From: a virus | Reading direction: 5' to 3' (one strand) | DNA length: 64,000 nt | IMG/VR virus record: IMGVR_UViG_3300037423_000584 | Part shown: in pieces, positions 4,942 through 55,219 of the stretch | Position numbering within the stretch: the stretch's first letter is position 1 | Layout: every line of letters starts with the position of its first letter | Made by a program: the position numbers and the translations under genes | Notes under the pieces: model-generated | Database searches by the model: none | The model's input: only the letters and a program-made list of their open reading frames with translations | Told to the model about the DNA's origin: nothing

Positions 4942-5714
4942 TAAATATTAAAAATTACGCTAATAATATTATAAATAAGATCAATAGAAAGATTGTTTTT
5001 ACAGACGTAGAAACAACTGGTACAGATGTAACAAAAGACGAAATTATCCAATTTGGTGCAATAGTGATTGAACCAAAGAAGGGTATTAATGAATATGAAT
5101 TCTTTATAAAGCCTAGCTTTCTAGTTCCACAATCTGCAATTGATATTCATGGAATTACCAATGAGAAACTAGAAAATCAAGGATCATTTGGTGATTATGC
5201 AAAAGATATAGTTGCTATATTTCGTGATGCAGATATTGGTGGATTTAACGTAAGATTCGATCTTCAAATTCTTGATAGACAATTAGAAGATTCTGGATAC
5301 TTTGGAGTATTTGATCAAGCAAATATATATGATAGTTTTTCTATCTTTAAAGATCATCTTCCACGCAATCTTGGTGCTGCTTATAAGCACTATGGCTTTG
5401 GTGAATTAGAAAATGCTCACGATGCAATGCAAGATATTAAAGCATCACTAGTTGTATTTTCCAAGCAATTAGATATTGAAAATACAGAAGATCCAATAAA
5501 TATATCAAGGAAGTATAATATGTCCTATGATAGTAGAATTGGATTCTCTGATCATATCATCATCAAGGATGGAAAACCATACATCAACTTCGGTAAACAC
5601 AAAGGCACCGAACTTAAGATGGTAGATAAAAGCTATCTTAGATGGGTAGTAGATAAGAGTGATCTACCATGGAAAGTAAAGGAATATGTCAAAGAATATA
5701 TTAAAACTAATTGA
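4938..5714 (+). CDS. dnaQ: DEDDh 3'-5' exonuclease (DNA Pol III epsilon-like) with C-terminal FGKHKG domain
   Basis: DVETTG, IHGIT, GFNVRFD, HDAMQD; C-terminal NFGKHKG..YLRW. Confidence 0.9.
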   Translation: MINIKNYANNIINKINRKIVFTDVETTGTDVTKDEIIQFGAIVIEPKKGINEYEFFIKPSFLVPQSAIDIHGITNEKLENQGSFGDYAKDIVAIFRDADIGGFNVRFDLQILDRQLEDSGYFGVFDQANIYDSFSIFKDHLPRNLGAAYKHYGFGELENAHDAMQDIKASLVVFSKQLDIENTEDPINISRKYNMSYDSRIGFSDHIIIKDGKPYINFGKHKGTELKMVDKSYLRWVVDKSDLPWKVKEYVKEYIKTN

Positions 5715-6180
5715 TGATATTTACTTTTATTCCTGCGAAAAGCTTAATGGAATACTAATTAATGAAGAAATAGATCCCATTATAGATCAATTAATTACTG
5801 CTGTTATAGTAAATATATTAGAAAAAGACAAATTAGATAAAGACGATATAGAGTTATTGTCACACGTTAAGAACTATGATTTGTCGAATATACAAAGTAA
5901 CGATATTTTTGGTCTAATACAGAAGATGTCTGTTATAGCTAGGGAAAATTCCCACGGTGCTTGTATATTATATAGAGTCTTTGTTACTTCTGATGCATAC
6001 AAGCAACTACTTGAATCAACTGGACAAAAGTCTGTTAAAAACATAACAATAGGCAAGGTCCAAATAAAACCATGCGATGAAGTTACTAAAGATATTGGTG
6101 TTTCTGTATACGGTATATGTAAATCAAAATTTAATATAAGTCCAATTAAGTTAATACTTACTGGAAAAATAGGAGAATAA
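5686..6180 (+). CDS. Hypothetical protein
   Basis: Long ORF tightly packed in the operon. Confidence 0.6.
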   Translation: MSKNILKLIDDIYFYSCEKLNGILINEEIDPIIDQLITAVIVNILEKDKLDKDDIELLSHVKNYDLSNIQSNDIFGLIQKMSVIARENSHGACILYRVFVTSDAYKQLLESTGQKSVKNITIGKVQIKPCDEVTKDIGVSVYGICKSKFNISPIKLILTGKIGE

Positions 6181-7265: not shown

Positions 7266-7628
7266 ATGGGAATTTTTGATTCAACTATTGTACGTTATTA
7301 TAGATGCACAGACGAGAAGTGTCAAGGTGAAATCTGTGTAGAAGAGAAAGTAAAAGATGATTGGCAAACTAAATGTCCATTCTGTGGTCTGGAAAGTCTT
7401 ATCCTTGATAGAGCAGATTCCAATATATCTATCTTTATGGATTATAGTAAACCAAAGACTATAGGTGCATTAGCCGAACAAAATACAAAGGAAAAGATTA
7501 AAACAGGCGAAATGGAGCAGATTCAAAAAGAAGAAAGAAAAAATCTTCCTTTCTGGCGTAAATCAAAGAAGATTAATTATCAAGTATTAAAGAATCCACA
7601 AAAATACATAAGAGAGGGTAAAGTATAA
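7266..7628 (+). CDS. Zinc-ribbon protein (FmdB-like)
   Basis: YRCTDEKC...CPFCG followed by 'KTIGALAEQN'. Confidence 0.6.
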   Translation: MGIFDSTIVRYYRCTDEKCQGEICVEEKVKDDWQTKCPFCGLESLILDRADSNISIFMDYSKPKTIGALAEQNTKEKIKTGEMEQIQKEERKNLPFWRKSKKINYQVLKNPQKYIREGKV

Positions 7629-50234: not shown

Positions 50235-51032
50235 TTACTTCGGTTCTTCAACTACAACAGGAGTACCATCTTCGTCTAAAAATGGCTGTTCCTCTGAAAT
50301 CTCGCCTTGAAGAGTATTGATTTGCTTTGCAACCTCTTCCTCTAGCATCTTGACAGTCTTACCTTCTCTGTCAACCTTTTCACCAGTCTTGCGATCAATA
50401 TAGTTTAGATCATCATCAATGAAGTTATACTTCTTAAGCCAGCGATTTTCTGGTAGACGCTTTTCGAATTCTGTATTGACTCCATAGATTACTTCGGCAG
50501 AAGCAACACCGGCCTTGCGATAAACATCGCTTAGTTTATCAGCCTTCATGTCATCGAACGATTCCCAATAGTTTACTCCTGTTTCAGAATATACAGTACA
50601 AGCATAAACTATATAATCATTACGTTCACGTTCTGCTAAAGATTCGATAGTGGAATCATCGAAAATCTGACGCTTGCTCATTATCTTAACCATTTCTTTA
50701 CGCTTATCAGTTACTTCAATAGCAAGCTTACGACCTTCACTAAGTTTAATTCCGCCCTTCTTCATTTTGCCCAGAAGAACTTCGATATCCTCTTGAATCT
50801 GAGAGAGTTCTTGTTCTTCCTTTTCTGTCCAGACTCCTGTTTCCTTTAGAAACTTGTCTAGCTCAGAACGAAGAAGAAGACCCTTCTTGCCTCCGCTTTC
50901 TCTAATAAGGGATGCTACTTTTGAAGCATAAATCTTATCGGATTGCTCAAGATCGTCATAGGTTGGGCGACGAACCGATAGTGTAATTTCCTTGCCATCC
51001 TTATCGAAACTAGTAAAATCCTTGCGATTCAT
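50235..51032 (-). CDS. Putative tail assembly chaperone
   Basis: Charged helical protein immediately upstream of the TMP; AGGAG RBS. Confidence 0.5.
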   Translation of the reverse strand: MNRKDFTSFDKDGKEITLSVRRPTYDDLEQSDKIYASKVASLIRESGGKKGLLLRSELDKFLKETGVWTEKEEQELSQIQEDIEVLLGKMKKGGIKLSEGRKLAIEVTDKRKEMVKIMSKRQIFDDSTIESLAERERNDYIVYACTVYSETGVNYWESFDDMKADKLSDVYRKAGVASAEVIYGVNTEFEKRLPENRWLKKYNFIDDDLNYIDRKTGEKVDREGKTVKMLEEEVAKQINTLQGEISEEQPFLDEDGTPVVVEEPK

Positions 51033-51356: not shown

Positions 51357-52409
51357 TTATCTCCTATTTTGTGTTCCTTGCGATGCCGCCTGATTTACTT
51401 TCATAATCAGATCTTGCTTCACATCAGGCAACTGTGTATGTTCCAATTGTCCTTTTTCGTTGATTACTTTTTCTCTAGTCGCTATAATTCCTTTGGCAAT
51501 AGGATCGTTAAGGCTATAAACTTCTTTTGCCCCTTCCTTGTCACTTGGAATAAAGACTTCTTGACCAGATATTAAGTTTGCTGAATTTTCTACTTGTCTC
51601 TTCTGATTTTCTTTATTTATTCTATCTGCTTCTGCTTTATACCAAGCATCGAATTTCGTATCGTCGTTTATTACTTCGTCACTTGGTCTATTTGAACTTT
51701 CAAAAGCAAAATCGTAGACCTTGGTCCACAACAAAAGCAAATATTGTAAATCCGTCATCTCAACAGAAGAGTGAGGGAAAAGGTGGGTTCCTGTACCTTT
51801 CGATACTGTCCAATATAACCGCCAAGGGTCGGTTCTTGCTATCTCTCTTATTTCTGGCTCAGAAATACCGTTTTCCTTATAATAATAATATACAAGAACA
51901 TCTAAAAATGCTGGCTCTTCTAATAGAGATCTATCTTTAATTTCTGTTATTTTTGATACTATAAACTTCTTTCTGCCCATATCGGATAAGTATTCAGCAG
52001 TAGAAGAATATAATTGATTCCTGATGGTTTCTAATTCTATGAAACGCTTCTTTGCTTTTTCTATGGCTGCTTTTGCTGTTCTTTCCTCTGATTTCTTGAA
52101 TCTAAGCTCTGGCAATCTAGAGTTGAGTTTCTCGATATCTGATTTAATAGTTTCTAGTTCTTTTTGAAGCTTATCATTCCATAAACCTTTTTCAGTCAAC
52201 AGTTTATATGATTCTTCAAGAGTAAATAATCCATCTTCTTTTGTAGATCTATTAAAGATTTTGTTGTAAATCCAGTCGCTTTCGGCAAGGATGGACAACG
52301 AAGGATCTTTGAAAACAACATCAAAGTTGTCATGCTTGTACTTGACTGTGCAGTACAATGTTCTACTGGTTATTCTGCGGAGGATTTGTTCTCTTTTATT
52401 GAAGTCCAT
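51357..52409 (-). CDS. Hypothetical protein (possible tail assembly chaperone)
   Basis: Coiled-coil-rich; located between the tail tube gene and the TMP. Confidence 0.5.
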   Translation of the reverse strand: MDFNKREQILRRITSRTLYCTVKYKHDNFDVVFKDPSLSILAESDWIYNKIFNRSTKEDGLFTLEESYKLLTEKGLWNDKLQKELETIKSDIEKLNSRLPELRFKKSEERTAKAAIEKAKKRFIELETIRNQLYSSTAEYLSDMGRKKFIVSKITEIKDRSLLEEPAFLDVLVYYYYKENGISEPEIREIARTDPWRLYWTVSKGTGTHLFPHSSVEMTDLQYLLLLWTKVYDFAFESSNRPSDEVINDDTKFDAWYKAEADRINKENQKRQVENSANLISGQEVFIPSDKEGAKEVYSLNDPIAKGIIATREKVINEKGQLEHTQLPDVKQDLIMKVNQAASQGTQNRR

Positions 52410-52446
52410 ATATCTAATTATCGTTTATTCCTATAGATATATACAA

Positions 52447-52480
52447 TAAAAAATCCCACGCCATAGGGTTAACGTGGGAT
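52447..52480 (-). terminator. Rho-independent terminator downstream of the HNH gene
   Basis: ATCCCACG/CGTGGGAT stem followed by TTTTT on the - strand. Confidence 0.7.
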
Positions 52481-52535
52481 AGACAGGAACGGAAGTGATA
52501 TTTTGTTAAGTAATGACAAGTTACTTAACATATAA

Positions 52536-52796
52536 TTATCGTATCTTCTTATTAGTTTTTTTGACTTTTTTCTTTTTATTTTTATAATCGTGAAACATTT
52601 TATGACATTCTTCACATAGCGTTATTAAATCCAAATCGTCTTCATTTCCTAATCTGTCATATGTACTGTGATGTACTTGCAACAAAGTATCGTTTGCATC
52701 TGCGTTACAAAGTCTACATTTGAATCCATCTCTCTTTAATATTTGGATTCTTCTTTTACGCCATTTCTTAGATTTTATGTATTTTGTTAGATTCAT
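52536..52796 (-). CDS. Minimal HNH endonuclease (86 aa)
   Basis: 'W...R..IL.RDGFKCRLC...LQVHH...LITLCEECH' with a basic C-terminal tail. Confidence 0.88.
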   Translation of the reverse strand: MNLTKYIKSKKWRKRRIQILKRDGFKCRLCNADANDTLLQVHHSTYDRLGNEDDLDLITLCEECHKMFHDYKNKKKKVKKTNKKIR

Positions 52797-52804
52797 GTTA
52801 TATA

Positions 52805-53135
52805 TATCCAGCCAGGCCCCTTTACTGCTGATTCTATCTTCTCTCTTTTAGAGTTAGTATTAGAATCTTAGTAAATCAATCTTAGAACCAAAATCTATCC
52901 TATTATCAGCACTAGGTTGTGAGGTTGCACATTGCCTAGATTTATTTTTTTCCGGATAGTACAAAGTTCTAAAGCCCAGAACATGGCCTGTAATATGTTC
53001 TGCTGCTGACTCATAACTGCGGCGGCTTTTGTTTTTAGGACACGGTTTTAGTTTTAAAATGGAATGGGATACCGTCTGTCTATAAACCCTATGTCTGTCA
53101 ACTATAATTATCGTAGTGATAGAACGGTGTTTAAG
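52805..53135. ncRNA. Putative structured non-coding RNA adjacent to the HNH gene
   Basis: About 330 nt without a credible ORF; many nested complementary segments and two candidate pseudoknots; strand uncertain. Confidence 0.4.
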
Positions 53136-53140
53136 CGTTA

Positions 53141-53173
53141 AAATAAAAAGATCCAGCACGAAGGCTGGATCTT
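53141..53173 (-). terminator. Rho-independent terminator after the tail tube gene
   Basis: AAGATCCAGC/GCTGGATCTT stem followed by a T-run on the - strand. Confidence 0.8.
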
Positions 53174-53201
53174 ACCTTTATATATAAATATAAGTAGGAT
53201 A

Positions 53202-54212
53202 TTAAGTTAGACCTTCTGGGTCACTCAAAGAAGTGACATCTAACTTGTTGAAATTCTGGAACGAATAAGTCATTGTTGCATTACCACCAGTAGCGTCAAA
53301 ACCACTGAACGAAACAGATTGAAGCTTATTCTTATTACCAAGATCAAAGATTGTTCCATCGTCAAGCTTGATCTTAATTGGTTCATTTGTTAGGTTGGTT
53401 GCATCGCTGATAGCATTGATATTGTCACCGGGGTTGCTACCACCAGCGGTAACAGTAATAGAGCAGTTTACAGCAGTTGGGAAGGTAGCATACTTATAGT
53501 ATGGCTTCCGACGACCAAGCTCGTATAGATCTTCACGACCAAGGCTGCAACTGATATTAACGTCCTGAATGTGTGCTCCGAATACACCTGCTGTTTGAAT
53601 GTTATAACCAGAACCACCAATTACAGTAACACCGGGAATATTTGTTGGGAAAACAGATTCACCGCTTCCCATACGAACGTTTTGACGTCGCTGAGTACCA
53701 GAGGCAGGAGTATCAGTATTATCAAAGTGACCATTGAATGCGAAGCTTGAGGTCTTCCAAATCTTATCGTTACCAGTTAAGCTAACGCTTTCACGAGCGT
53801 TACCTTGGACTGGAAGAGTATAGTTTAGGCTGTTTACATACATACCAGAGCAGTATGCTTGAACCATGGGGGTTCCAGTTGCACTGCTATTGGTATCTTG
53901 GAACAAGCTAACGAATACGTCTGCCCGTTGATTGGTACGATTTAGAAGAGACTTGCTAGTTGCACCCCGAGTAGAAAGATGGTAAACAAGAGGATAGCCA
54001 TCAAGAACCTTATCAATTGTCATTTCGACAGTTGGAAGGTTTTCAATGTTCTCATAGATATCAAGCTGACCTAACTCGAAGACCTGCTCTAGATTGAAGT
54101 TAGTGTTCATGCTTACGCTTTGGACACCGTGAACAGGCAAGCCTGTTACGCTGCAATATGGTCCAATTGCAACTTCTGCTAATGCGTATATTATCCTGTT
54201 AGTTGTAGGCAT
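53202..54212 (-). CDS. Major tail tube protein
   Basis: Two tube-like repeats ('EQVFELGQ', 'EDLYELGR'), strong RBS, its own promoter motif and terminator, position upstream of chaperones and TMP. Confidence 0.75.
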   Translation of the reverse strand: MPTTNRIIYALAEVAIGPYCSVTGLPVHGVQSVSMNTNFNLEQVFELGQLDIYENIENLPTVEMTIDKVLDGYPLVYHLSTRGATSKSLLNRTNQRADVFVSLFQDTNSSATGTPMVQAYCSGMYVNSLNYTLPVQGNARESVSLTGNDKIWKTSSFAFNGHFDNTDTPASGTQRRQNVRMGSGESVFPTNIPGVTVIGGSGYNIQTAGVFGAHIQDVNISCSLGREDLYELGRRKPYYKYATFPTAVNCSITVTAGGSNPGDNINAISDATNLTNEPIKIKLDDGTIFDLGNKNKLQSVSFSGFDATGGNATMTYSFQNFNKLDVTSLSDPEGLT

Positions 54213-54250
54213 TTTATTATCTCCGTTTCTATAAAATTTCTTTCCAATGA

Positions 54251-54275
54251 TATAGCGTACAAATATTTATACAAG
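54251..54275 (-). promoter_or_regulatory. Putative late promoter CTTGTATAAAT-N3-TGTACRCTATA
   Basis: 22/25 identical to 33743-33767; contains a T4-late-like TATAAATA. Confidence 0.7.
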
Positions 54276-54283
54276 TATAAATA

Positions 54284-55219
54284 TTAATATGTACTTAAAT
54301 ATCTATCTACTTGAACAGTTTGCCTACACTGACCTCTGAATAAATCAAGATGGTCATCAATTGTTTCTGTTTGGCTTTTATCTATATATCCATAAGTCCA
54401 AAAATAACTATTATTTCTATTGGCTAAATTAGGATAAGTTAAAGCACCACTAGATAAAGTACCATTATTTTTAAGAGGAATTGGAGCACGATTTACATCA
54501 AATAAACTAATTGATGTAGAATCTTGATTGCTAATTAAATCGAGCAAACGTTTATTGGTAAAACCCTTGTCGGTGAAAGTATGATAAAAAACCATATATT
54601 CTGATCGTTCGCCACCTCCGAGTTGCAATCCCTCGTTTGTTCTATTTTGTACGTCTATTACTATACAAGGAATCCATACTCTATTTTCTTTAAGATTAGA
54701 AGCCATTCCAGATGGAGAAAGAGTATCTAACGAATCATATCTGGTTTGATATTCGTCTACTATAGTTTTCCATTCATAACTATCTGCTGTATAAACAGAT
54801 ATATCCCTAGCAGTGTATTCGCATCTAATATTTCCTGACGTTACAGGACGATCAAAAATTATTCTTCCTCTTTTATAATCAACCTTATAAGATAAATTGC
54901 CAGAAGTATTTGTAGGTAAAAATACATTATTAATATAAATACCAGAAACTTGGAATGGAGCAATAGATTCTCCAATAGGAGCTACATCATTTTCCCAAAC
55001 CCAAGATGGACCAAAACCTTCGTACACTTGATAGTCATTGTATCTATCATCTTTTACATGTTTTAATTTTGTATAACCAGATGTAGGAAGATTGAATTTT
55101 ATAGGAGTATAGGCACCTACTTCTAAAAGACCATATTCAAGCCAAGATTTAAGGTTATAAGCGAGAATATCGCTACCTTCGTAATCGTAGAAGTTTTTTG
55201 TTCCCTTTAATACTGGCAT
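54284..55219 (-). CDS. Putative tail terminator/neck protein
   Basis: 'VWIPCIVID...GLQLGG'; position immediately upstream of the tail tube gene. Confidence 0.5.
   Translation of the reverse strand: MPVLKGTKNFYDYEGSDILAYNLKSWLEYGLLEVGAYTPIKFNLPTSGYTKLKHVKDDRYNDYQVYEGFGPSWVWENDVAPIGESIAPFQVSGIYINNVFLPTNTSGNLSYKVDYKRGRIIFDRPVTSGNIRCEYTARDISVYTADSYEWKTIVDEYQTRYDSLDTLSPSGMASNLKENRVWIPCIVIDVQNRTNEGLQLGGGERSEYMVFYHTFTDKGFTNKRLLDLISNQDSTSISLFDVNRAPIPLKNNGTLSSGALTYPNLANRNNSYFWTYGYIDKSQTETIDDHLDLFRGQCRQTVQVDRYLSTY

Follow-up and report, generated by a model that had tools for sequence, protein, structure and literature searches.

A block of ~790 nt between two conserved genes of an uncultured phage is probably (we put the probability at about 0.7) a lineage-specific insertion with a free-standing small HNH gene, resembling a moron or a selfish cassette of the T4 mob/seg type. 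On the best reading, it is an ordinary accessory or selfish HNH nuclease cassette that is not IscB-like. The source phage is represented by an IMG/VR virus record of 172,542 bases, which is rated complete; the window, i.e., the whole stretch of 64,000 nucleotides analysed here, corresponds to bases 10356-74355 of this record. The credible genes around the cassette all lie on the - strand, along which the order is the 336-aa gene, terminator T1, word copy A, the right inverted arm, the spacer, the HNH gene, copy B, a hairpin, the left arm together with terminator T2, copy C, and the 350-aa gene. These features are as follows, in window coordinates.

53202..54212, - strand: conserved gene of the structural module (336 aa), 5' of the cassette; 29 viral contigs have homologues (32-45% amino acid identity)
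53148..53173, T-run on the - strand, terminator-like on the + strand too: terminator hairpin T1 with a 10-bp stem; ensemble pairing probability ~1.0
53103..53115, - strand: repeat copy A, the word TACGATAATTATA (as read on the - strand); exact 13-mer direct repeat with copy B
53072..53093, no strand assigned: right arm of an imperfect inverted repeat; above-chance energy not found
52797..53147: untranslated spacer or leader 5' of the HNH gene, 351 nt (the ~330-nt RNA of the first-pass annotation)
52876..53030, + strand: three-hairpin core, which folds better on this (antisense) strand
52860..53159, - strand: 99-aa GTG-started open frame, judged not to be a gene
52536..52796, - strand: HNH endonuclease gene (86 aa); Lys-rich tail at the C-terminus, weak ribosome-binding site
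52561..52588, + strand: promoter-like TTGACT-16-TATAAT, antisense to the HNH gene (11/12 matches)
52531..52543, - strand: repeat copy B, the second exact copy of the 13-nt word; overlaps the HNH stop codon
52504..52530, no strand assigned: perfect 10-bp hairpin directly 3' of the HNH stop
52462..52492, no strand assigned: left arm of the inverted repeat; overlaps terminator T2
52453..52480, - strand: terminator hairpin T2, 11 pairs and a T-run, which ends the HNH unit; probability 0.76-1.0
52412..52426, - strand: repeat copy C, diverged (10-nt core exact, 19/23 with copy B); ends 2 nt before the start codon of the 350-aa gene
51357..52409, - strand: conserved 350-aa gene, downstream of the cassette, without a Shine-Dalgarno sequence at normal spacing

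The two terminators that the first-pass annotation had placed at the cassette boundaries are present as terminator-like hairpins with T-runs on the - strand at 53173..53148 and 52480..52453. Between the right inverted arm and the HNH gene, ~275 nt contain no credible gene. Further 3' genes encode proteins of 106 aa and 265 aa, followed by a 1995-aa ORF, labelled a putative tape measure in the first-pass annotation. The name "tail tube", given there to the 336-aa gene, found no confirmation, as this protein has no Pfam match and only a weak match to phrog_985, "virion structural protein". The 350-aa (51357-52409) and 265-aa (50235-51032) proteins look like distant paralogues, and the 350-aa query also matches the position of the 265-aa gene in several relatives (23-32% over ~130 aa).

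To place the cassette in context, we compared it with 29 related phage contigs, which show 32-45% identity in the 336-aa protein. The gene order 311-aa, 336-aa, 350-aa, 106-aa, and 265-aa is kept in 29 of these 29 contigs, and none of them has an HNH gene between the 336-aa and 350-aa genes. At the corresponding junction, 14 of the relatives have a coiled-coil ORF of 42-50 aa and five have a further copy of the 336-aa gene, while the rest have a short gap (14-158 nt). Given the absence of an HNH gene from this junction in all the relatives, we therefore interpret the ~790-nt block as a lineage-specific insertion. The first-pass annotation had suggested a cassette or mobile unit, and this part of its proposal is borne out by the empty site in 29 of 29 related loci, where the flanking genes are adjacent and HNH-free. 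No match to the 3 kb was found among INPHARED phages by distant blastn, and the related phages contain no DNA similar to the spacer.

Both the HNH gene and the spacer are single-copy in the phage genome. Small HNH genes occur elsewhere in five relatives, and their orthologues in the present phage lie beyond the window end, at ~74578-74850 and ~76668-76850 (-) in window-scale coordinates, with conserved contexts in the relatives. Since the relatives' small HNH genes thus correspond to two other genes, the cassette HNH gene is an extra, accessory copy, and the phage has three small HNH genes including these two further HNH-like ones.

Some features of the junction in the relatives are also worth recording. 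The coiled-coil ORF (L002:5063-5215, L007:5042-5194, L009:5120-5272, and 11 other related loci) begins MEDIF/MEEIF..IGKLYLDL and often overlaps the next start codon; the present phage lacks it, as do L001 and L019, the phage's closest relatives, and no trace of it was seen when all six frames of the window were searched with a profile. The start of the relatives' 350-aa gene overlaps the stop of a small upstream ORF, which suggests a translational coupling lost in the present phage. The tandem second copy of the 336-aa gene, which is 24-29% identical, occurs in L022-L026 (~4950-5970) at the position of the HNH cassette.

The minimal 86-aa HNH gene of the first-pass annotation (ORF 52796..52536, -) proved to be sound. 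Its product passes the Pfam profile PF01844 (HNH) with 25.1 bits against a cut-off of 21.4 over residues 27-70, and matches 21 PHROG HNH families with E-values down to 1.5e-13. In an alignment with the four closest homologues, C27, C30, H42, H43, C61, C64, H65, and H69 are invariant, making up an intact set of two CxxC zinc pairs and the catalytic His. The HNH homologues range from ~70 to more than 300 aa in length, and ~87-aa members are common among them; therefore, a size of 86 aa is natural. An identical 86-aa protein is encoded on 11 contigs, and two further homologues at 59-62% identity (P0002 and P0003) are encoded on short contigs.

The closest profile and structural matches were also considered. 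The best NCBIfam match is the HNH part of IscB (NF040563); it covers positions 183-251 of the 314 in the profile and scores 36.5 bits against a cut-off of 175. Among proteins of solved structure, a group II intron maturase (its En domain, E 8.6e-6) and an IscB come closest. The architecture of IscB comprises a split RuvC, an HNH, and a PLMP domain. We rejected an IscB identity because the protein has no RuvC, PLMP domain, or bridge helix, leaving the match of the HNH domain alone. A group II intron remnant, with the HNH protein as its En domain, was likewise rejected, in that neither a group II Rfam match nor an RT-like frame was found. Pfam recognised no DNA-binding domain within the 86 aa, and no sequence-specific domain of this kind is obvious; the protein may be a true homing nuclease or, equally, a non-mobile accessory one.

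The first-pass annotation had further proposed that the HNH protein and the long stretch before its gene form an RNA-associated minimal ribonucleoprotein or ribozyme akin to IscB/HEARO. This idea found no support in the searches and folds, which gave no Rfam family, no counterpart of the spacer near ~120 homologues, and an ordinary fold. A scan of 51500-54500 on both strands against Rfam 15 (E up to 10) returned no family at E<1 and no HEARO; its seven matches all had E>1 and fell at the two terminators or inside flanking genes, with none in the spacer body. ARAGORN detected no tRNA or tmRNA in the spacer. We also gathered ~120 loci of HNH homologues (18 from viral contigs, 80 from metagenomes, and 19 from genomes), all at most 52% identical and drawn from collections that leave out near-identical records. 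The spacer showed no similarity to the flanks of these loci in blastn and nhmmer searches, and the gaps 5' of the HNH homologues were mostly short. A covariance model built from the single sequence of the + strand core, which is a low-power test, matched only itself among the HNH-homologue loci and phage relatives, and the exact 26-mer of hairpin 4 was absent from the viral and genome contig collections. With no spacer-like flank at the ~120 loci, the suggested co-occurrence of a flanking RNA with HNH homologues therefore fails, as far as these data reach. Overall, the sequence of the ~330 bases before the HNH gene offers no evidence for a special partner RNA, and we regard the spacer as an untranslated leader that is at most cis-regulatory.

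The folding of the spacer was then compared with dinucleotide shuffles. The - strand of the 351-nt spacer gave z -0.94 and its + strand z -2.09. For the 155-nt core (52876-53030), which contains the five helices listed in the first-pass annotation, z was -2.92 on the + strand (1/200 shuffles) versus -1.11 on the - strand, in a window picked after seeing the fold. As a genome background, both strands of 3448 sliding 150-nt windows were folded and the energy was regressed on G+C; on this scale, the core windows rank only ~650th-1400th of 3448, and the terminator flanks alone reach z near -2. All the helix arms and both pseudoknot words of the claimed multi-helix RNA are in place, but its fold is unexceptional by the standard of the genome. 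One value alone stands out: at 52996-53145 the + strand is 17 kcal/mol more stable than the - strand, an asymmetry that ranks 54th of 3448 windows and agrees with the earlier remark that G-U pairs favour the + strand. The G+C content of the spacer reaches 0.43-0.44 in 52950-53099; the strongest local folding of the genome, with G+C up to 0.63, lies beyond the window at ~81500-88200 in window-scale coordinates. As a separate observation, the 16 nt just 5' of the HNH start (52798-52813) are complementary to the 5' arm of T1 and its flank (53163-53187) in blocks of 9 and 7 with a 9-nt bulge, one block being a TATATATA run; the ensemble probability of this pairing is 0 once T1 forms.

The somewhat better-than-expected fold of the + strand, together with a near-consensus promoter pointing towards it, means that the spacer may be non-inert. 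One possible explanation is a cis-antisense RNA of ~580 nt on the + strand, which would run from the promoter at 52561-52588 over the HNH start, through the three-hairpin 3' domain, to T1. By analogy with RNA-OUT, the antisense check on the IS10 transposase, such an RNA might hold an otherwise toxic minimal nuclease in check, a role that we consider unlikely, as we do the RNA itself. The 11/12 promoter match would supply its start and T1, being terminator-like on both strands, its end, and the preference of the core and of 52996-53145 for the + strand is consistent with this arrangement. However, the genome contains nine 11/12 sites compared with ~13 predicted by chance, the T-run after T1 is interrupted on the + strand, and the core window was chosen post hoc and amounts to about z -1.5 on the genome-wide scale; in addition, the core has no homologue and hence no covariation. 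As read from the sequence, the + strand interpretation of the spacer appears coherent but weak. A different possibility is that the spacer is a decayed second gene, or the lost N-terminal domain of a longer HNH protein. The G+C rise described above, a 103-codon open frame on the gene strand, and the N-terminal extensions of 16-250 aa in many HNH homologues are in line with such decay, which we nevertheless regard as very unlikely: ~49 open frames this long arise by chance in the genome, no homologue of the frame turned up in an exhaustive HMMER search, the N-terminal parts of 91 homologues are dissimilar to every spacer frame, and natural ~87-aa members exist. The first-pass annotation had seen no credible ORF in this region; indeed none is credible, but a 99-aa GTG frame (53159..52860, -) does fill much of the spacer. 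Its codon score is 0.02, compared with 0.23 for genes and -0.07 for spurious frames, its GTG start lies inside the T1 hairpin, and its predicted model is unfoldable (pLDDT 0.40). The exhaustive HMMER search with this frame returned only itself and repetitive giant proteins. On the basis of its lack of homologues, intermediate codon score, and low pLDDT, this frame was rejected as a gene.

The ends of the cassette were assessed in the same way. The inverted arms at 52462-52492 and 53072-53093, which the first-pass annotation had described as paired cassette ends, are present: blocks of 9, 8, and 4 bases match, with insertions of 8 and 2 nt between them. Their duplex energy (-26.3 kcal/mol) is not beyond chance, as 10% of random genomic placements with the same geometry reach it. 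The genome holds 33 such two-block inverted pairs. If the arms pair in the mRNA, they could form a leader-trailer stem that encloses the HNH message for RNase III-type processing or insulation and perhaps competes with T2. The arms do lie just inside both ends of the unit. When the whole 703-nt message is folded as an ensemble, the pairing probability is 0.6-0.8 for blocks 2 and 3, whereas block 1 loses to T2; since the left arm overlaps T2, this 9-nt block competes with the terminator stem, giving alternative structures. Such a stem is nonetheless very unlikely in view of the unexceptional energy and the 33 similar pairs, as well as the shortness of the arms with their 8-nt bulge; moreover, ~23 of 49 random 703-nt segments contain an equally long or longer long-range helix, and in about a dozen of these segments the helix pairs with a probability that is at least as high. 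The inverted ends are thus possibly, not demonstrably, real. A transposon-like reading was rejected, as the inverted arms are not flanked by a target-site duplication and there is no transposase or invertase gene in the vicinity. Regarding the direct repeats, the 10-nt core ACGATAATTA has 8 copies in the genome, 3 of them at the cassette, and the word stands 28-33 nt after both terminators. Exact 13-nt direct repeats within 2 kb number 51 in the genome, and three copies of one 10-mer within 800 nt are found at only about six places; because of these counts, we treat the triple ACGATAATTA word as probably real. The copy before the 350-aa gene (52409) ends 5 nt before its ATG. Taken together, the ACGATAATTA repeats and the inverted ends are probably insertion scars or small regulatory words, rather than functional transposon ends.

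For the preferred reading, an accessory or selfish HNH cassette, the sequence also suggests how the gene may be expressed. From T1 to the HNH start, the gene strand has no site with at least 9/12 sigma-70 matches, with the proviso that phage-specific promoters may differ. The HNH start is preceded only by a GGA 14 nt upstream, compared with a GGAG at 8-10 nt in the neighbouring genes. T1 would stop most transcripts arriving from the 336-aa gene, and because no good promoter was seen on the gene strand, transcription of the HNH gene would need read-through of T1. The RNA produced by read-through would have a long leader, and its ribosome-binding site is weak and badly spaced; the nuclease would presumably be made at a low level, and T2 would end the unit. 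The ~350-nt leader is likely to have arrived with the gene, and might at most tune its expression in cis rather than act in trans or as a guide RNA partner. As no gene-strand promoter was found, the cassette is only half shown to be a self-contained unit. Elsewhere in the genome, perfect 12/12 sigma-70 promoters (TTGACA-17-TATAAT) occur twice, compared with ~0.4 expected, at window position 7325 (-) and ~10.1 kb before the window start (-).

Several known systems resemble this arrangement in part. A moron is a transcription unit added between conserved late genes; classical morons are found in temperate phages and usually carry host-fitness genes. This definition is reportedly that of Juhala et al. 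2000 and Hendrix et al. 2000. Like a moron, the HNH cassette is an extra gene between conserved, adjacent genes of the structural region, has its own terminator (T2), and varies in presence among relatives; unlike a moron, it has no detected gene-strand promoter. With IscB and its omega RNA (HEARO), it shares an HNH domain of the same broad clade and a long non-coding stretch 5' of the gene, but the sense strand of the spacer is not notably structured and has no HEARO match.

Phage T4 offers another comparison, as it has 12 free-standing HNH or GIY-YIG genes located between conserved genes, whose expression is kept low by terminators, the choice or absence of promoters, and RNA hairpins at the start site (PMC2988022). 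One of these genes, segD, is located between genes 23 and 24 of the capsid; it lacks its own promoter and is flanked on either side by terminators (PMC2988022). Similar to T4 mobA-E and segA-G, the present cassette has a gene of the HNH/GIY-YIG class in a gap between genes that are adjacent in relatives, is bounded by terminators, and is expected to have low expression. It differs from the mob/seg genes in that the HNH protein has only 86 aa and no recognisable DNA-binding domain, and in the unusually long untranslated stretch (~400 nt) 5' of the gene; in addition, segD is antisense to its neighbours, whereas the HNH gene is on the same strand as its neighbours. In T4-like phages, composite terminator-promoter cassettes known as PeSLs lie on either side of orphan genes, which are gained and lost through them (PMC2839356, PMC4122927). 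The HNH cassette recalls them in having a stem-loop terminator, ~30 nt, and a shared short ACGATAATTA word in succession on both sides of the inserted gene. However, PeSLs are conserved over ~100 bp, compared with only 10-13 nt shared here, and the ACGATAATTA word is no genome-wide motif and shows no evident promoter activity.

If the leader were shown to act as a conserved antisense or regulatory RNA, it would fit an emerging picture of phage nuclease cassettes that bring their own RNA brakes. If the plain reading is true, the cassette is one more accessory or selfish HNH gene that marks a plastic spot in a phage tail module, a result that would be unsurprising and useful for annotation.
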